Positions 1-19,688 of a DNA stretch of 64,000 nt are shown here, in pieces. A program made the translations under genes and the position numbers. The DNA is from Clostridia bacterium (GTDB lineage Bacteria; Bacillota; Clostridia; Christensenellales; QALW01), in assembly GCA_017502165.1 (NCBI GenBank), contig JAFVVO010000025.1, forward strand, positions 8,854-72,853. Reading direction: 5' to 3'. How positions within the stretch are numbered: the stretch's first letter is position 1; each line of letters starts with the position of its first letter. The notes below the pieces were generated by a model that ran no database searches, was not told the DNA's origin, and saw only the letters and a list, made by a program, of their open reading frames with translations.

Positions 1-612
1 GCCGATGAACTCGGGAATGGGATCAACGAAAGCCATGTGGCCTGCCCATCCGGGAGAGGTGGAAGCAATGTCAGCACCTTCGCCGTTGGTAATGTCCTGA
101 ATAATCTGTGAATAGTTTTTAATATTTGCGTTGGTGGGAAAGTGAACGTTCTCCATAGGCATACGAAGCTTCTCATCAATCTGATAGTAGAGATACTTAA
201 TCATTGAGTGAGCAAAGCCTGCTTCGTAGGTAATAGGAGCAATGTTGCCGTCCTGGTCAGCCCATTCGTCTTCAGCAACAAGGTGAACCTTTGAACAGTC
301 AACCTGGAAATAGTTGATAAGCTGTGCTAAAGGAATATAGGTGTCGGGCTCAGGGTTACCAAGAATCATGGTAAAGCTCTTGCCTGCTTCGGAAGCAGCC
401 TTAAGGCGTTCAAACAAGGTTGCTATCAAAACGGGATGGGGATTCATCATAACCTTAACGTTGAACTCGGGATGCCACCAATCTTCACGCTTTTCAAGGT
501 CTTTGCCGCTGAGTGAGCGAACGTAATCGCAAACCTTTTTGTCCTTAAAAGGAACAAAATCAGCAGGTTCAAAATTGAATTTAGTTGCGGGATCTACGAT
601 AAAATCTTTCAT
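1..612 (-). CDS. NagB/SugarP-isomerase family protein (glucosamine-6-phosphate deaminase-like); C-terminus runs off the window start
   Basis: The minus-strand frame is open from ATG 612-610 (AAGGAG upstream) to the window edge. The translation MKDFIVDPATKF...SPGWAGHMAFVDP resembles the GxDGHxAFNEP region of NagB-type enzymes. Confidence 0.55.
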   Translation of the reverse strand, partial: MKDFIVDPATKFNFEPADFVPFKDKKVCDYVRSLSGKDLEKREDWWHPEFNVKVMMNPHPVLIATLFERLKAASEAGKSFTMILGNPEPDTYIPLAQLINYFQVDCSKVHLVAEDEWADQDGNIAPITYEAGFAHSMIKYLYYQIDEKLRMPMENVHFPTNANIKNYSQIIQDITNGEGADIASTSPGWAGHMAFVDPIPEFIG

Positions 613-3731: not shown

Positions 3732-3870
3732 AGAAAATTCCTCCTAAGTAAAATATTTAAGTAAATTATAGCAAATTTGAAAAATAATGTAAAGAATTTT
3801 TTGAAAAAACTTACAATTTTACATAAAACGGAAGCCAATAAAAAAATTTTAACCCAAACGTAATTTTAAC

Positions 3871-3898
3871 TGGACAAATAAAATTTTTTTGATATAAT
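3871..3898 (+). promoter_or_regulatory. Candidate sigma-A promoter for the tRNA-Thr/tRNA-Leu pair
   Basis: TGGACA, a 16-nt spacer, then TGaTATAAT (extended -10), about 15 nt upstream of the tRNA-Thr 5' end. Confidence 0.45.
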
Positions 3899-3912
3899 AA
3901 TCAATGTGCTAC

Positions 3913-3988
3913 GCTACCGTGGCTCAGTCGGCAGAGCGGTTCACTCGTAATGAACAGGTCGCCGGTTCGATTCCGGCCGGTAGCTCCA
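3913..3988 (+). tRNA. tRNA-Thr (anticodon CGT)
   Basis: A cloverleaf was drawn by hand. Acceptor GCTACCG/CGGTAGC, anticodon stem GTTCA/TGAAC with loop CTCGTAA, T-arm GGTTCGATTCC, CCA encoded. Confidence 0.9.
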
Positions 3989-3997
3989 ACAAAATAC

Positions 3998-4084
3998 GCC
4001 GGTGTGTTGGAACTGGCAGACGAGACGGACTCAAAATCCGTTGTCAGCGATGGCGTGTGGGTTCGAGTCCCACCACCGGCACCA
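3998..4084 (+). tRNA. tRNA-Leu (anticodon CAA), type II with long variable arm
   Basis: Acceptor GCCGGTG/CACCGGC, anticodon stem ACGGA/TCCGT with loop CTCAAAA, long variable arm, T-arm GTGGGTTCGAGTCCCAC, CCA encoded. Confidence 0.9.
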
Positions 4085-4243
4085 CGTCGCCGCAAGCTAA
4101 AAAAGGCTTGCGGCATTTTTTTGTCAAAAAAACCGCAATGCCTTTGGCGCTGCGTCTCCTTATACGCAAAAAGTCTCGCTCGGCTCATCTGCTCGGTTGC
4201 AAGCGCCCTCACGACGATTCACTGTCGCTACCAACTTTTTGCG
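4085..4243 (+). repeat. Module X: conserved non-coding module, repeated in inverted orientation at 19129-19288
   Basis: Roughly 90 percent identity by eye to the reverse complement of 19129-19288. It begins with a terminator hairpin and contains a 10-bp stem (CGCAAAAAGT with ACTTTTTGCG) enclosing about 57 nt. Confidence 0.8.
4089..4122 (+). terminator. Intrinsic terminator after tRNA-Leu(CAA)
   Basis: GCCGCAAGC ... GCTTGCGGC hairpin followed by a T7 run. Confidence 0.7.
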
Positions 4244-4254
4244 TTAGCGTGTTA

Positions 4255-4282
4255 AGCAGACAAGTAGTCTGCTCTTTTTTTA
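4255..4282 (+). terminator. Intrinsic terminator-like hairpin between modules X and Y
   Basis: AGCAGAC aagta GTCTGCT followed by CTTTTTTT. Confidence 0.55.
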
Positions 4283-4301
4283 TTTAAGAACGGAGAGAAA
4301 A

Positions 4302-4551
4302 AACGGGGTCCCCGAAAAGCAGTATTGCTTTTTGGGGAAAAGGAAGCACAATGGAGCGATTTAGCTTTCTTGTAAAACAAGAAAGCGCTTAAGCGTAATT
4401 TGTGCTGACGCGGGACTCGAAGCCTGAGAGGGAGCAAAGCGTTAAGAAAACGATTGATAATCGTTTTCAGCTTTGCTGTGCGAGACGGGTACTGCGAGCA
4501 TTACGGAGTAAGCGGAGCGGTCGTTGAGCAGGTAAGGCGCGAAGCGACTGT
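4302..4551 (+). ncRNA. Module Y: candidate structured RNA or repeat element of unknown class, second copy at 19306-19560 (minus strand)
   Basis: About 250 nt and about 88 percent identical to the other copy. It has a 12-bp hairpin (4310-4337), a 9-bp hairpin GCTTTCTTG/CAAGAAAGC and nested stems AGCAAAGC/GCTTTGCT and AAAACGAT/ATCGTTTT. Differences between the copies keep the pairing: G-U versus A-U at 4314, C-G versus U-A at 4418/4426, and G-U versus G-C at 4519/4549. Confidence 0.5.
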
Positions 4552-4569
4552 GTCCCACCACCGGCACCA
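4552..4569 (+). repeat. Exact 18-nt duplicate of the 3' end of tRNA-Leu(CAA) (equals 4067-4084)
   Basis: GTCCCACCACCGGCACCA occurs at 4067-4084 (T-loop end to CCA) and again at 4552-4569. Confidence 0.95.
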
Positions 4570-4602
4570 AAAAATCGACAGGTTTCGACCTGTCGATTTT
4601 TT
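4570..4602 (+). terminator. Intrinsic terminator after the duplicated tRNA 3' end
   Basis: ATCGACAGG tttcga CCTGTCGAT followed by a T6 run. Confidence 0.65.
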
Positions 4603-4604
4603 AT

Positions 4605-4780
4605 CCATTGCGAAAGCAATGGTATATCATCACGCGCAAGCGTGCATCTCATCACCGAAGGTGTATATCATCAGCCGCAGGCTGCATTTCTTTTCGCAAT
4701 GATGATATGCAAAACTTCGTTTTGATGATATGCAATTCCTGCGGAATTGATGATATACACGGCTTTCGCCGTGATTTATG
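4605..4780 (+). other. Array of seven short hairpins separated by an inverted 9-11 nt arm motif (TATATCATCA / TGATGATAT)
   Basis: Hairpins lie at 4605-4622 (GAAA loop), 4631-4644 (GCAA loop), 4653-4663, 4672-4684, 4710-4724, 4733-4749 and 4759-4772. Arms lie at 4622-4632, 4645-4654 and 4664-4673 (one sense) and 4700-4709, 4723-4732 and 4748-4758 (reverse complement). Confidence 0.6.
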
Positions 4781-4833
4781 TAAGAGTTCGAATTCATACG
4801 CAAAAACATCTTTTTTGTAGCCCATAGACATAA

Positions 4834-4864
4834 CAAAAAAACAGACTAAGGGTCTGTTTTTTGT
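4834..4864. terminator. Bidirectional terminator-like hairpin, similar to the one at 19099-19120
   Basis: A-run, CAGAC taagg GTCTG, T-run. Nearly the same sequence (AACAAAAAAACAGACcaacGGTCTG) occurs at 19093-19118. Confidence 0.5.
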
Positions 4865-4869
4865 TATTT

Positions 4870-4922
4870 TGGGGGAAGGAAGGGACTTGACCACAAACCG
4901 TTAAAAAAACGATTGATAATCA
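4870..4922. repeat. Degenerate third fragment: reverse-complement tRNA 3'-half-like sequence plus a partial module-Y core
   Basis: TGGGGGAAGGAAGGGACTTGACC resembles the reverse complement of the tRNA-Leu(AAG) 3' end (TGGTGCGAATGAAGGGACTTGAACC). CGTTAAAAAAACGATTGATAATC repeats the Y core seen at 4440-4466. Confidence 0.45.
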
Positions 4923-5008
4923 TCAGTGCTTTCTATAACTCTCAAATTGACTTTTTATGCGCATTATAATATAATACTTTACAGAATAATCAGTTAAGGA
5001 ATACTCTA

Positions 5009-6352
5009 ATGGAATCTAACAAATTTTTTGCAACGGCACCGCCCGTAAAACTGTTTTTTATTGCCGCAATACCGGGTATGATAAGTATGCTTGCGGCGAC
5101 GGCATACGGTATTGCCGAGGGCGTTTTTATAGGTAATTGGCTTGGCGAAACTGCTTTTGCGGCAGTAAGCATAGGCTTTCCCTTTGTTTTGATAAACTTT
5201 TCCCTTGCAGACCTGGTGGGCGTAGGCTCTTCTGCACCGATTTCCATTGCCTTAGGCAAAAAGGATCAGGAAAAGGCAAACAATATTTTCACCTGCTCGT
5301 TAATTTTAATGCTTGCAACGGCAGTTTTTATGGGAATTTTAATGTTCGTTTTTGCGGACGCCTTGGTATCACTTTTAGGCGCAACGGGAGAGCTGGCGGC
5401 TCTTGCGGCTCTGTACGTGCGTGTTTATGCAATTTTCAGTCCGCTCACCACAGTGGTTTTTGCGGTAGATAATTACTTAAGAATATCGGGCTTTGTAAAA
5501 TTCAGTATGATAATAAACATAGTGATGACGCTTATTACCGTTTCACTTCTGTTTTTGTTTTTAGAGGTTATGTCAATGGGGGTTGAAGGTTCAGCCTTGG
5601 CATCAAGTCTCAGTATGTTTATTTGCGCGGTGATAGCCTTCGTGCCTTTTTTGCTTAAAAAGACGGTGCTGAGGTTTACGCGGCCGAGGTTTTCTTTTGC
5701 AATGATTAAGGAAATAGTTGCCTGCGGTTCACCCGTGTTTCTCAACAACGTTGCAGGAAGAGTTACGTCTATAGTAATGAATTCGGCACTTCTTAATTTA
5801 GGCGGACAAACTGCCGTTGCGGCGTTTTCCGTGCTGATGTATTCGGGGGAGATTATTCAGCCCTTAATGTACGGTATGTGCGATTCCGTTCAGCCTGCCA
5901 TTGGCTATAACTGGGGAGCAAAGCAGCTTGACAGAGTTAAAAATATAGCAAAATGCTCCTTTGTGGGAAGCGGTATTATCTCTGTTTTAGGTGCGGCAGG
6001 AATGTTATTATTCAGCCGTGAGCTTACCTCACTGTTTGTTGCAAAGGGTGACGTTGAACTGCTTGAAATGTCCGTTTATGCTCTGAAACTGTTTGCCTCA
6101 ACGTATTTGTTCCGTTGGTTTGCCTTTGCAACCCAAAGCTTCCACAGTGCTATCGGAAAGCCCAAGCCTGCGGCAATTTTATCAGTTTCAACCGCGTTTG
6201 TTTTCCCGATACTTTTCGTTGTCGCTCTTTGGCCGCTGGGACTTGACGGTTTATGGCTCAACCAAAGCGTAACGGCGCTTGTGGTTTGCATAATGGCGCT
6301 TTTTATGATTCTTCGAACTCAAAAGAGCATCAAATATTATATTGCAGCTTAA
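5009..6352 (+). CDS. MATE family efflux transporter
   Basis: 447 aa with about 12 TM segments and a MatE-like sequence pattern. Confidence 0.8.
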   Translation: MESNKFFATAPPVKLFFIAAIPGMISMLAATAYGIAEGVFIGNWLGETAFAAVSIGFPFVLINFSLADLVGVGSSAPISIALGKKDQEKANNIFTCSLILMLATAVFMGILMFVFADALVSLLGATGELAALAALYVRVYAIFSPLTTVVFAVDNYLRISGFVKFSMIINIVMTLITVSLLFLFLEVMSMGVEGSALASSLSMFICAVIAFVPFLLKKTVLRFTRPRFSFAMIKEIVACGSPVFLNNVAGRVTSIVMNSALLNLGGQTAVAAFSVLMYSGEIIQPLMYGMCDSVQPAIGYNWGAKQLDRVKNIAKCSFVGSGIISVLGAAGMLLFSRELTSLFVAKGDVELLEMSVYALKLFASTYLFRWFAFATQSFHSAIGKPKPAAILSVSTAFVFPILFVVALWPLGLDGLWLNQSVTALVVCIMALFMILRTQKSIKYYIAA

Positions 6353-9346: not shown

Positions 9347-9865
9347 TTATTTTATTTGCAATAGCTTTTTTGCGTATTCAAACAACTTTATTGCGGGGAT
9401 AGTTAAAAAACCCCAAACAAAATTGCTTACGCCGTGGATAGCGTCAAATCCAAGACCGCGAAGCATCCAAACAATCCAACCGTTTACGTCAAGCCCCGAA
9501 AACAATGCTTCCGCAGGGGAATAAAGGATTCCGAACAAAAACCCGTGCAAAGCGGAAATACAAGCGTAAACAAAAGGCTTGACCTTCTCGGGAAGGGTTT
9601 TGGGTAAAAGCATAGTTAAACCCCAAAGAGGCGCCCAGATGTAAAGGTATGGAATCCACCAGACGTTAAAACCTGAAAATACGCCTTCAAGAAAAACGTA
9701 AACGTAAATGGGGTATAATGCCTTAAAGCGAAACACCACCGTCATAGCAACGATGAGCACGCCGTTTAAGTGTACGTTTGGGAGAAATTCCATCATCAGC
9801 TGAAGAACGTACATCAAGCCTCCAAGTAAGCCGAACAGTACAATTTCCCGAACGTTTATTTTCAT
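9347..9865 (-). CDS. Small polytopic membrane protein, ECF S-component-like; putative corrinoid transporter component
   Basis: 172 aa with 5-6 TM segments. It overlaps the upstream DUF4430 gene (ATGA) and lies behind a cobalamin riboswitch. Confidence 0.5.
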   Translation of the reverse strand: MKINVREIVLFGLLGGLMYVLQLMMEFLPNVHLNGVLIVAMTVVFRFKALYPIYVYVFLEGVFSGFNVWWIPYLYIWAPLWGLTMLLPKTLPEKVKPFVYACISALHGFLFGILYSPAEALFSGLDVNGWIVWMLRGLGFDAIHGVSNFVWGFLTIPAIKLFEYAKKLLQIK

Positions 9866-10293
9866 GCCTTCTCCGCCTTAAAGGTGTAGGTTTTATCTGC
9901 CTCAATGCTTGTTGAGTCTGCGCCTGAGGAAGCATATCCGCCGTCAACGTAGAATGACCAGTAGGCCTTATCGGCATCATAATCAAGAGTTTTTCCGTTA
10001 ACCGATTTAACGTATAAGCCGAATTGCTCAGAATCACCTGCAATAATTTCGGCGTCTAACAGAGCTTCGCCAACGGTAGCCTTGTCGGTTTTTACGGTAA
10101 CCTTGGTCTCGTTGCCCGATAGGTCAATAACGGAAAACGCAAATTCCGTTGCGCCTACGCCGTAGGTTTCGCCGTCTGTCAGAGTAATGGTGGAATATTT
10201 GTTGTCTTGACAACCTGAGAAAAGTGCCATAGCCGCAATAAGCACAATACAAAGGCATAAAGACAGTAACTTGGTAGCATTTGTCTTTTTCAT
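9862..10293 (-). CDS. DUF4430 domain lipoprotein (transcobalamin-like corrinoid-binding fold)
   Basis: 143 aa with lipobox LFSGC. The sequence pattern is typical of DUF4430. It is the first gene after the cobalamin riboswitch. Confidence 0.7.
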   Translation of the reverse strand: MKKTNATKLLSLCLCIVLIAAMALFSGCQDNKYSTITLTDGETYGVGATEFAFSVIDLSGNETKVTVKTDKATVGEALLDAEIIAGDSEQFGLYVKSVNGKTLDYDADKAYWSFYVDGGYASSGADSTSIEADKTYTFKAEKA

Positions 10294-10334: not shown

Positions 10335-10535
10335 CAAAATCGGCGCTCGCGATTATTTTCTTAAGGCTGACACAAGAAAAGTATTTCGACTCTATGCATA
10401 TCCGTTCAGGATGCGTTTTTCGCCTTCTCGGAATTTTCCAATGGCTTGTCCCTTGCTTGCGGCGCAAGGTAGAAAAACGCGTTTAGCATATCACGGCGAC
10501 GGGCTCGTGCAGGATTTTCACCTGCTTCCGTTTCT
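10335..10535 (-). promoter_or_regulatory. Cobalamin (B12) riboswitch
   Basis: The minus strand reads GGAAGCAGGTGAAAATCCTGCACGAGCCCGTCGCCGTGA ... AGCCATTGGAAAATTCCGAGAAGGCG. This matches the conserved GGTGAAAATCC / CCCGCCACTGT core and the B12-box region. It lies in the 5' leader of 10293..9347. Confidence 0.75.
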
Positions 10536-10575
10536 TGTGCAAAAATAGTTTATCATATTTGCTTTTTTAATGCAA

Positions 10576-10599
10576 CAAAAAACCCCGCTTTTGCGGGGC
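10576..10599 (-). terminator. Intrinsic terminator of the isomerase gene
   Basis: CCCCGCaaaaGCGGGG followed by a T-run on the minus strand. Confidence 0.7.
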
Positions 10600-18984: not shown

Positions 18985-19098
18985 ATACTCACCGCCTTTT
19001 TATATTACAATCATTATATCAGAAAATGCAGAGCAAATCAATTATCTATCAAAAATTTTGTGGAATAAATAGTGGATAATGGAAACAAGGTATAACAA

Positions 19099-19120
19099 AA
19101 AAACAGACCAACGGTCTGCT
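19099..19120 (-). terminator. Terminator-like hairpin following module X' (minus strand)
   Basis: The minus strand reads CAGACCgttGGTCTG followed by T7. Confidence 0.5.
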
Positions 19121-19128
19121 GAAGCGAT

Positions 19129-19288
19129 CGCAAAAAGTTGGTAGCGACTGTGAATCGTCGTGAGGGCGCTTGCAACCGAACAGATGAGCCGAGCGTGACT
19201 TTTTGCGAAAAAGGAGACGCAGCGCCAAAGGTATTGCGGTATTTTTTGATAAAAAATGCCGCAAGCCTTTTTTAGCTTGCGGCGACGA
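19129..19288 (-). repeat. Module X' (inverted copy of 4085-4243)
   Basis: The reverse complement aligns end to end with 4085-4243, including the GCCGCAAGC/GCTTGCGGC terminator. Confidence 0.8.
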
Positions 19289-19305
19289 GGTGCGAATGAA
19301 GGGAC
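19289..19305 (-). repeat. Exact 17-nt duplicate of the 3' end of tRNA-Leu(AAG) (equals 19605-19621)
   Basis: GGTGCGAATGAAGGGAC occurs at both positions. Confidence 0.95.
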
Positions 19306-19560
19306 ACGGTCGCTACGCGCCCTAACTGCTCAACGACCGCTCCGCTTACTTCGTAATGCTCGCAGTACCCGTTTCGCACAGCAAAGCTAAAAACGATTAT
19401 CAATCGTTTTATTAACGCTTTGCTCCCACTTTGGCTTCAAGTCCCGCGTCAGCACAAATTTCGCTCATACGCTTTCTTGAAAACAAGAAAGCTAAATCAC
19501 TCCATTGTGCTTCCTTTTCCCCAAAAAGCAATTCTGCTTTTTGGGGACCCCGTTTATTTT
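19306..19560 (-). ncRNA. Module Y' (second copy of the candidate structured element)
   Basis: The reverse complement aligns with 4302-4551. The stems are preserved. Confidence 0.5.
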
Positions 19561-19565
19561 AAATA

Positions 19566-19596
19566 ACAAAAAACCGAGCTCTTTTGAACTCGGTTT
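19566..19596 (-). terminator. Intrinsic terminator after tRNA-Leu(AAG)
   Basis: The minus strand reads AACCGAGttcaaaagaGCTCGGTT followed by TTTTTG. Confidence 0.65.
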
Positions 19597-19603
19597 TCTG
19601 TTA

Positions 19604-19688
19604 TGGTGCGAATGAAGGGACTTGAACCCTTACGTCTGTTGACACATGATCCTTAGTCATGCCTGTCTGCCAATTCCAGCACACTCGC
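19604..19688 (-). tRNA. tRNA-Leu with anticodon AAG (A34), type II
   Basis: The hand-folded sequence is GCGAGTG TG CTG GAATTGGCAGA CAG G CATGA CTAAGGA TCATG, a 13-nt variable arm, AAGGG TTCAAGT CCCTT CATTCGC A CCA. Confidence 0.85.

Follow-up and report, generated by a model that had tools for sequence, protein, structure and literature searches.

Cis-mobilizable elements (CIMEs) are bounded by attL and attR sites that consist of copies of a tRNA 3' end, carry no integrase or transfer genes and form tandem stacks through repeated integration (PMC5704250, PMC9897764). An attR site is usually recognized by a partial tRNA gene (PMC9897764), and a path of accretion followed by decay has been described for elements of this kind (PMC5704250). 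Here, we describe a 64-kb stretch of a Clostridia bacterium genome (contig JAFVVO010000025.1), hereafter the window, to which all position numbers refer unless another contig is named. In the window, a 467-bp unit composed of two non-coding modules that we term X and Y, with a terminator between them, lies between two copies of the 3' end of a tRNA-Leu(CAA) gene (locus 1). Similar to the CIMEs, the unit sits between tRNA-end repeats without integration or transfer genes, and its modules, which recur at a second tRNA-Leu gene (locus 2), are absent from the site orthologous to locus 2 in related species. The unit differs from CIMEs in its length of only 467 bp, in containing no gene at all and in having no autonomous parent that we could find. 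It also keeps its arms but swaps its core between two tRNA-Leu genes, and Y retains a single-strand fold. On balance, we think it probable that 4085-4551 is a gene-less, non-autonomous integrated unit (X, terminator, Y), one layer in a stack of remnants.

The size of the repeat is itself familiar. The att cores of P4 and PAI II at Escherichia coli leuX measure 18-20 bp, and an 18-bp repeat at a tRNA-Leu(CAA) gene is the classical footprint at leuX.

Duplicated 3' ends at two tRNA-Leu genes

The tRNA-Leu(CAA) gene, which we take to be the insertion target and the attL side, is intact (3998-4084, plus strand; called by ARAGORN and by the Rfam tRNA model at 50.7 bits). Its last 18 nt, positions 59-76 of the tRNA, read GTCCCACCACCGGCACCA (4067-4084) and recur exactly at 4552-4569 on the same strand, the attR side; both copies lie where the original prediction, made from the letters of this stretch, had placed them. 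Read on the cloverleaf, the repeat consists of the last two T-loop bases, the 3' strand of the T stem, the 3' strand of the acceptor stem, A73 and CCA. Elsewhere in the window, there is no match even when up to three mismatches are allowed, and two matches were reached in none of 100 shuffles. The second copy is probably the displaced original 3' end of tRNA-Leu(CAA).

Two modules do lie between the repeats, as originally described, but their limits required correction. X1 occupies 4085-4283 on the plus strand, its terminator included, and is recognized by its fold, its terminators and 89% identity to the second copy of X; Y1, a multi-hairpin module, occupies 4304-4551 on the plus strand and is 91% identical to the second copy of Y in the window and 83-88% identical to a copy in another genome (L012). 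Immediately beyond the second repeat lies a third module, T1Z (4570-4779, with no strand assigned), 82% identical to a segment of two phage contigs (L162 and L163). T1Z is followed by a degenerate, internally deleted third X-terminator-Y unit (≈4790-4925, plus strand) that was recognized from repeat families D2, D4, D19 and I1, from BLAST pieces and by direct reading. With P0 denoting the terminator that closes X, the order at locus 1 is tRNA end, X-P0-Y, end, T1Z, degenerate X-P0-Y. Instead of the single isolated insert closed by a repeat that had been envisaged, the locus contains portable modules, at least three in number (X, terminator-Y and T1Z), stacked together with a degenerate X-Y copy, and each of the three modules adjoins a tRNA CCA end or a copy of one.

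Conspecific contigs, recovered through exact-protein look-ups of the flanking genes, keep the same structure in their long scaffolds. Conspecific short-read contigs break at the 3' end of tRNA-Leu(CAA) (window ≈4079-4081), inside the second copy of X and at the end of T1Z (4779), which is the expected behavior of repeated DNA.

BLAST of the modules against the window identified the second copies of X and Y on the minus strand, downstream of another intact leucine tRNA gene, tRNA-Leu(AAG) (19604-19688, minus strand; ARAGORN/Rfam), the second target. Read in the tRNA sense, the CCA of this gene is followed by a 51-nt spacer with a bidirectional terminator (19553-19603), then by Y2 (19306-19552, 91% identical to Y1), a 17-nt copy of tRNA-Leu(AAG) positions 59-75, GTCCCTTCATTCGCACC (19289-19305), and X2 (19092-19287, 89% identical to X1), all on the minus strand. 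The 17-nt copy derives from tRNA-Leu(AAG), not from tRNA-Leu(CAA); a T replaces the last A of CCA, and X2 begins one base past the copy. The spacer terminator sits where P0 sits before Y1, and the order at locus 2 is accordingly permuted to tRNA end, P0-Y, end, X-P0. In both loci, Y runs into a copy of its own neighbor's 3' end that starts at the same tRNA position (59), and X starts at the CCA end of the tRNA or of a tRNA-end copy. The end-X...Y-end arrangement of locus 1 is the order of attL and attR sites; the Y-end-X arrangement of locus 2 is that of an attP site or a tandem junction. The repeat at locus 1 had been compared with the attL/attR footprints of elements that integrate into tRNA genes, and the presence of a repeat from position 59 to CCA in two tRNA-Leu genes bears this reading out.

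To compare occupied with unoccupied sites, we used homologs of radC, the gene beside tRNA-Leu(AAG), to reach the corresponding loci of two related species; this comparison covers locus 2. In L153 (RadC 65% identical), an identical tRNA-Leu(AAG) gene (5784-5868) is followed by an ordinary terminator and the next gene; X, Y and a second tRNA end are all missing. In L160 (RadC 54% identical), the identical gene (4757-4841) is again followed by a terminator, and the 137 nt before the contig end contain none of the three. The tRNA-Leu(AAG) sequence and the radC synteny are the same in three species and everything past CCA differs, making the 3' boundary of this gene a sharp synteny break. Because the orthologous sites in L153 and L160 are empty, X and Y at locus 2 are lineage-specific insertions.

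The same observations bear on an explanation that needs no mobility, in which X and Y would be leftovers of local segmental duplications that took in a tRNA-Leu gene together with its trailer and then lost the tRNA body. Periodicity of the units (end, X, terminator, Y) is apparent, and some copies are degenerate, as this explanation would have it. The deletion, however, would have had to end at 58/59 independently in two different tRNA genes, Y has a copy in another organism, T1Z has a copy in phage contigs and the sites in related species are empty. We consider such an origin very unlikely.

The modules themselves encode nothing that we could detect. Neither X nor Y contains a credible open reading frame (ORF), the frames being broken or start-less and unconserved between copies, and a search of the concatenated six-frame translation of X and Y against a protein database found no relatives; the frame check and the protein search thus uphold what had been read from the sequence. 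Two frames of X are open in both copies, and a protein-coding X was considered and ruled out since these frames have no start codon and no homolog and enter from the tRNA. The bounded segment had also been described as lacking a recombinase, and this extends well beyond its borders: no recombinase, transposase, reverse transcriptase, TnpB or phage gene is found across the 64-kb window, in which all ORFs are housekeeping genes of a spore-forming Clostridia-like organism.

Fold and tRNA-matched segments of module Y

Both modules are densely self-complementary, as first noted, and both fold better than shuffled sequence. In X, this folding shows no strand preference, and comparison of X1 with X2 yields one compensatory pair only. 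X1 opens directly after CCA with a terminator hairpin and T run (4089-4114 for the hairpin), continues with a long stem in which 4164-4174 pairs with 4234-4244, and closes with P0 (hairpin 4255-4273 plus T run, a terminator span of 4255-4283). The proposal that each module is followed by its own intrinsic terminator holds for X but not for Y, as the 15-bp perfect hairpin at 4569-4602 is the first part of the phage-shared T1Z. No sigma-70-like promoter precedes X or Y, and one or two intrinsic terminators stand between the tRNA promoter and Y.

The fold of Y favors one strand, with a predicted energy of -107.5 kcal/mol (z -5.2) on the plus strand versus -82.8 kcal/mol (z -3.9) on the minus strand. 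In Y1, its helices are P1 (4309-4338), P2 (4345-4351/4400-4406) around P2a (4364-4386), a small hairpin (4423-4431), P3a (4433-4440/4470-4477) around P3b (4447-4467) and a 3' domain (4486-4551). The 5' domain was aligned over three copies (Y1, Y2 and L012; first 189 columns) and the 3' domain over two. RNAalifold on the three copies returns 56 pairs, 10 of them with compensatory double changes; when the local helices are specified, 10 of 51 pairs are doubly changed (four in P3a, three in P2a, two in P3b and one in the small hairpin). A count of 10 is reached by none of 500 shuffles, and controls slid out of register give at most two. The 3' domain, with two sequences, has no compensatory pair. 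In the Y1/Y2 consensus fold, seven to eight G-U pairs become A-C mismatches on the opposite strand, consistent with the difference in strand energies.

Conservation of Y at the level of structure, with a bias toward the tRNA sense, was part of the original prediction, and it is sustained by the compensatory pairs, the G-U pairs and the strand energies. Among the individual changes cited for it, those at 4314 (G-U to A-U) and 4519/4549 (G-U to G-C) stand. For 4418, RNAalifold prefers 4487 to 4426 as the partner (C-G to U-G), and the compensatory change falls at 4425/4429. Y is conserved as a folded module and has no counterpart among the catalogued RNA families. Its compensatory pairs, which come from only three sequences, could be mimicked by quasi-palindrome correction at the DNA level. 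Given that the conserved fold favors one strand, these data indicate that Y would act as a folded single strand, either RNA or single-stranded DNA, in the life of its parent element.

Within the 5' domain, a 23-nt block, GGGGAAAAGGAAGCACAATGGAG, is identical in all three copies (4339-4362; 19517-19494, minus strand; L012 ≈1056-1079), and the identity extends to 33 nt between Y1 and Y2. The block resembles a ribosome-binding site followed by ATG, and the ORF that it would open is ATG-GAG-TGA (two codons) in Y2 and L012 and 13 codons long in Y1.

The large structured RNAs of Firmicutes that often lie near tRNA genes or in mobile elements, ROOL, GOLLD, raiA and HEARO, had been suggested as leads for X and Y. 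We searched Rfam 15 over the whole window at gathering thresholds and over 3850-5050 at E ≤ 10. At the gathering thresholds, the only matches are three tRNAs and a cobalamin riboswitch; at E ≤ 10, no match on X or Y rises above noise, and none is to these four families. X and Y are therefore not members of ROOL, GOLLD, raiA or HEARO as far as covariance models can tell. Several other identities were also considered and ruled out: a group I intron of tRNA-Leu (no Rfam match, wrong position), a transfer-messenger RNA or tRNA-like 3' domain (the acceptor and T stems would have no 5' partners), a T-box (on anatomy) and an IS200/IS605, Tn7-like or IS110 insertion as such (insertions of these types leave no 18-nt repeat, and neither their ends nor their genes are present).

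A conserved, strand-biased fold downstream of a tRNA gene could also belong to the host. X and Y might be non-coding RNAs cut from the tRNA-Leu 3' trailer, like the RNAs of tRNA 3' external transcribed spacers, with the copied tRNA end serving as a signal for processing or stability and not as an att site. This corresponds to the RNA-level reading of the original prediction. The 3' trailer of E. coli leuZ, which acts as a sponge for small RNAs, is presumably a precedent. Every copy of X and Y lies downstream of a tRNA-Leu-type end in the sense orientation, Y shows structural covariation and strand bias, and in both loci Y and its tail are directly followed by a terminator, as a real tRNA gene would be. 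Yet two related species have neither X nor Y at the same tRNA locus, and within the window the modules follow a different order at each locus and behave as repeats, with degenerate copies. Strong intrinsic terminators stand between the tRNA and Y, which has no promoter of its own, and X has neither a strand preference nor more than the one compensatory pair. We therefore regard a host trailer RNA as unlikely.

Two segments of Y match the tRNA gene beside it. The first is the 3' tail, the tRNA-end copy itself, which switches completely to each local tRNA between the two loci, whereas the Y scaffold is ≈91% conserved. The second is a 10-nt box in Y1, GGGACTCGAA (4412-4421, plus strand), that is perfectly complementary to positions 54-63, TTCGAGTCCC, of the neighboring tRNA-Leu(CAA). 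The box of Y2 and of L012 reads GGGACTTGAA and matches TTCAAGTCCC, the T arm of Y2's own tRNA. Complementarity of 10 nt is reached by only 2-4 of 300 shuffles, and a non-cognate box pairs over only 6 nt; across the two loci, the box follows its cognate tRNA including the G57/A57 difference. Box and tail jointly span the insertion point at 58/59. On the minus strand, 4408-4432 reads TTCGAGT-CCCGC-GTCAGCA-C, with the geometry of a T loop, a T-stem strand, an acceptor strand and a discriminator, without CCA, and the box may thus be an old inverted fragment of another tRNA. Since an inverted tRNA fragment would be complementary to any T arm, only the C/T at 4418 would then be left as a match to G57/A57.

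A structured scaffold with a short variable 3' segment that matches a chromosomal target, here seen in two loci, recalls the guide RNAs of TnpB, IscB, CRISPR-associated transposons (CASTs) and IS110. The guide RNAs of type V-K CASTs usually target a tRNA gene (PMC11406308). By analogy with the omega-RNA of TnpB, the guide RNA of CASTs and the bridge RNA of IS110, Y could be an address-bearing RNA, in which a scaffold of ≈250 nt, the tail (positions 59-76) and the box (positions 54-63) would allow a recombinase or nuclease supplied in trans to find tRNA-Leu genes. The conserved scaffold with its switched tail, the box that follows its cognate tRNA, the plus-strand fold with its G-U and compensatory pairs, the start of Y at 51-55 nt after CCA in both locus 2 and L012 and the existence of tRNA-gene-directed guide RNAs in type V-K CASTs (PMC11406308) are all in line with such a role. 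Nevertheless, no partner protein gene is found in the 64 kb or beside Y in L012, Y has no promoter and is preceded by one or two terminators, and the L012 copy lacks the 3' domain and the tail. The covariation of box and tRNA rests on one base in two loci, and the box continues on the minus strand into the tRNA-3'-end-like string that may mark it as an old inverted fragment. The resemblance to the known systems is also incomplete: there is no TnpB, Cas12k, Tns or IS110 gene in the window, no CRISPR repeat, no Tn7-type ends and no Rfam match, and a true direct repeat flanks the tail of Y, a feature that the known systems do not generate. An address-bearing RNA of this kind is unlikely. We give little credence to its fuller version, in which Y would be the RNA of a mobile element with its own address, the tail copying 59-76, the box complementing 54-63, an enzyme in trans directing X-Y into the tRNA gene and the address being rewritable between tRNA-Leu genes.

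The fold of Y could instead be that of single-stranded DNA. Integrative mobile elements exploiting Xer (IMEXs), such as the CTX phage, and integron attC sites share with the window the lack of a recombinase of their own, folded single-strand sites conserved in structure rather than in sequence and arrays at one site; they differ in their target, which is dif or attI and not a tRNA 3' end, and no Xer or IntI site motif was seen here, no search aimed at one having been made. If Y were a folded attachment site of this type, used by a host or helper recombinase, duplication of the tRNA end would regenerate the target. Hairpins kept by compensation on one strand, with G-T wobbles tolerated, would be expected of it, as would the lack of a promoter and of a recombinase gene and the stacking of modules at one site. 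In addition, pairing is possible between GGGAC (4412-4416) and the GTCCC with which the repeat opens, and this would restore a short stretch of the target sequence as a duplex. This GGGAC/GTCCC stem is absent from an alternative RNAalifold fold, however, and we found no replication or transfer function, no sign of a single-stranded stage and no relative in phage or plasmid collections. A single-stranded attachment site is, in our view, distinctly improbable.

The constancy of the boundary at position 59 suggests one further route. Retroviruses have 18-nt primer-binding sites, and Neurospora retroplasmids capture tRNA sequences. The joints between Y and the tail and between the tail and X might have arisen by reverse transcription in which the last 18 nt of the tRNA were copied, with a stop after position 59 and a template switch. 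The repeat is exactly 18 nt long and starts at 59, right after A58, in both loci; the tail is always the local tRNA's own sequence, and X begins directly at CCA. Against this, the window contains no reverse transcriptase, the same boundary is usual for the att cores of integrases and landing beside a tRNA gene would go unexplained. Of all the origins considered here, we find this one the hardest to credit.

Copies elsewhere, T1Z and a serine recombinase family

Three copies of Y and two of X were collected in all. A scan of species-representative genomes with an 18-mer gave one real Y match, in a Clostridia metagenome-assembled genome (L012), and six chance matches. In L012, Y is represented by its first ≈170 nt (83-88% identical), with neither 3' domain nor tail, and has the same kind of bidirectional terminator in front; as at locus 2, it starts 51-55 nt past a CCA end. 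An exact-pattern scan of metagenome contigs for X and Y returned only one chance match, in a eukaryote-like retroelement. Six exact-pattern scans of viral sequences gave nothing real for X or Y (for the 15-mer scan, among the matches listed), and a 17-mer viral scan containing the shorter 15-mer gave unrelated phage matches only. BLASTN in its distant mode found no match to X or Y in plasmid and phage collections, and a covariance model of the Y 5' domain found no further copies in the window and 10 loci. A promoter (window 4947-4975; L012 ≈1214-1245) follows each of the two truncated Y copies, Y3 of the window and that of L012. Both promoters open with one 12-mer, TTGACTTTTTAT, although the genes that they drive, MatE and TetR, are unrelated.

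T1Z, by its position and extent, is a third portable unit that adjoins a tRNA-type CCA end. It is 210 nt long and consists of a bidirectional terminator (4569-4602) and a nested array with two arms, in which six TGATGATATRCA boxes, three per strand, stand between small tetraloop hairpins; its fold has z values of -6.4 and -7.1. A pattern from the hairpin array (4603-4780) led us to the two phage contigs, in which the copy (145-343, minus strand, in both L162 and L163) is 82% identical over 214 nt. These contigs encode a major head protein, a portal protein and a holin, and their order is holin gene, short non-coding stretch, GCAGGTTCAAGTCCTGTTACTCGGACCA, T1Z copy. The geometry of the GCAGGTTCAAGTCCTGTTACTCGGACCA segment is that of a T arm followed by a 7-nt acceptor strand, A and CCA (...GGACCA), and the segment is not called a tRNA by ARAGORN or Rfam. 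The homology starts exactly after CCA and ends exactly at the short-read contig break, and some stems differ between the window and phage copies by compensatory changes. Both contigs end at the same base, 145 nt beyond T1Z, and no integrase is visible in either. The original prediction had reckoned with finding the same ends on an intact integrase-bearing element; T1Z, on a phage contig with no visible integrase, provides a weaker form of this, and X and Y provide none.

Among known RNAs, the closest likeness of T1Z is to Gut-1 (RF01706; 32.3 bits, E 0.0004, 4619-4694, minus strand), at a score below the threshold of 50 and at a position outside X and Y. The full length of the model is matched, and T1Z shares with Gut-1 an organization in short stable hairpins separated by a repeated purine-rich box. 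In T1Z, however, the box reads UGAUGAUAU and not GUGAAAU, and the array forms a palindrome with two arms. Possible roles of the boxes are those of iterons bound by a protein or of spacers in an RNA.

The neighborhood of Y in L012 offered a candidate carrier. A large serine recombinase gene lies upstream of the terminator and Y and ends in ...GGTGCACCA. Three relatives of this recombinase share sequence with L012 exactly to GCACCA and then continue into unrelated terminators. As the recombinase element stops at this tRNA-Leu-like GCACCA, Y in L012 is flank, outside the element. The recombinase was thus ruled out as the carrier of Y: none of six related recombinase loci has Y downstream, and the element ends at GCACCA. 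A tblastn search with the L012 recombinase found no match in the window.

The recombinase family (L012 9-985; L150 661-2107; L151 842-2295; L021 2656-4110) has features of its own. Its elements end in ...GG(G/T)GCACCA, a mimic of the tRNA-Leu 3' end, and the last codons of the ORF overlap the element end. Because the flanks diverge immediately after CCA, these sequences suggest that the family may integrate at the extreme 3' end of tRNA-Leu genes. In L150, a 95-nt insert (≈2108-2202) separates the GCACCA of the recombinase from a second GCACCA, ...CTCGCACCA, with a terminator. The right end of the insert, GGTTGGTTATGAACACTCGCACCA, resembles the right end of the recombinase element, and the insert looks like a decayed older element; it is a parallel, on a smaller scale, to the insert in the window.

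Two further features of the window are recorded here. A tRNA-Thr gene (3913-3988, plus strand; ARAGORN/Rfam) lies before tRNA-Leu(CAA). Two small genes, one with a DUF4430 domain (9862-10293) and one with no Pfam match (9347-9865), lie downstream of the cobalamin riboswitch (10360-10583, minus strand; 40.3 bits, above threshold).

Proposed integration and accretion at tRNA-Leu 3' ends

For the gene-less integrated unit that we favor, the repeats, the limits of the modules, their permuted order at locus 2, the empty sites of related species, the multiple copies of the modules and the lack of recombinase genes are observed; we infer the recombination mechanism, the class of recombinase and mobilization in trans. 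The Y copy beyond a GCACCA end in L012, T1Z directly after a tRNA-like CCA end in phage contigs and the 95-nt insert of L150 also speak for such a unit. The element would have entered by site-specific recombination between its own copy of a tRNA 3' end and the tRNA gene, with the recombinase supplied in trans by a related autonomous element outside the window. The tRNA-proximal copy of the repeat would restore the tRNA, the first hairpin of X would become the new terminator, and the original tRNA 3' end and the T1Z that follows it would be pushed downstream, with Y forming the arm next to attR. Before insertion, the junctions would have read tRNA-Leu(CAA)-CCA-AAAAATCGACAGG and tRNA-Leu(AAG)-CCA-CGTCGCC, and the junction of the circle would read Y-GTCCCACCACCGGCACCA-CGTCGCC. 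Several integrations combined with internal deletions would have built the present stack, in the manner of the accretion and decay described for CIMEs. For the recombinase, a tyrosine integrase whose target extends from the T loop to the 3' end seems most likely, with a large serine recombinase as a further possibility.

Several observations weigh against integration of this kind. The arms formed by X and Y are ≈90% identical between the loci, yet the 12-13-nt acceptor part of the repeat is swapped to the local tRNA. With the arms kept and the core swapped, a plain integrase model needs either two lineages of the element with different cores or a step of core capture. Just upstream of the repeat, Y reads CGACTGT and contains no T loop, which places the crossover outside the T loop, unlike that of classical T-loop integrases. 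Compensatory changes maintain the hairpins of Y, with a bias to one strand, which is atypical of protein-binding att-site arms, and a tandem model needs at least one extra deletion per locus. T1Z in the phage contigs could be either an attP arm, and thus phage DNA, or the host flank of an attR site. Finally, no autonomous element with X or Y at its ends was found, the collection scans having given one real match for Y and none for X.

Overall, the region is better described as a set of accreted miniature integrative modules, and Y as an uncatalogued structured element with tRNA-matched segments. If the unit between the repeats is indeed an integrated element, the 3' ends of tRNA genes in uncultured gut Clostridia would gather stacks of sub-kilobase, gene-less, att-flanked modules, which break short-read assemblies and could pass for regulatory RNAs. 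A further consequence would be a folded module new to the catalogs, Y, in which the segments matched to the tRNA vary with the host tRNA. Should these segments prove functional, Y would be a compact natural example of an element whose integration address resides in nucleic acid and not in protein, and it would bear on how integrative elements switch between tRNA targets and on programmable insertion.

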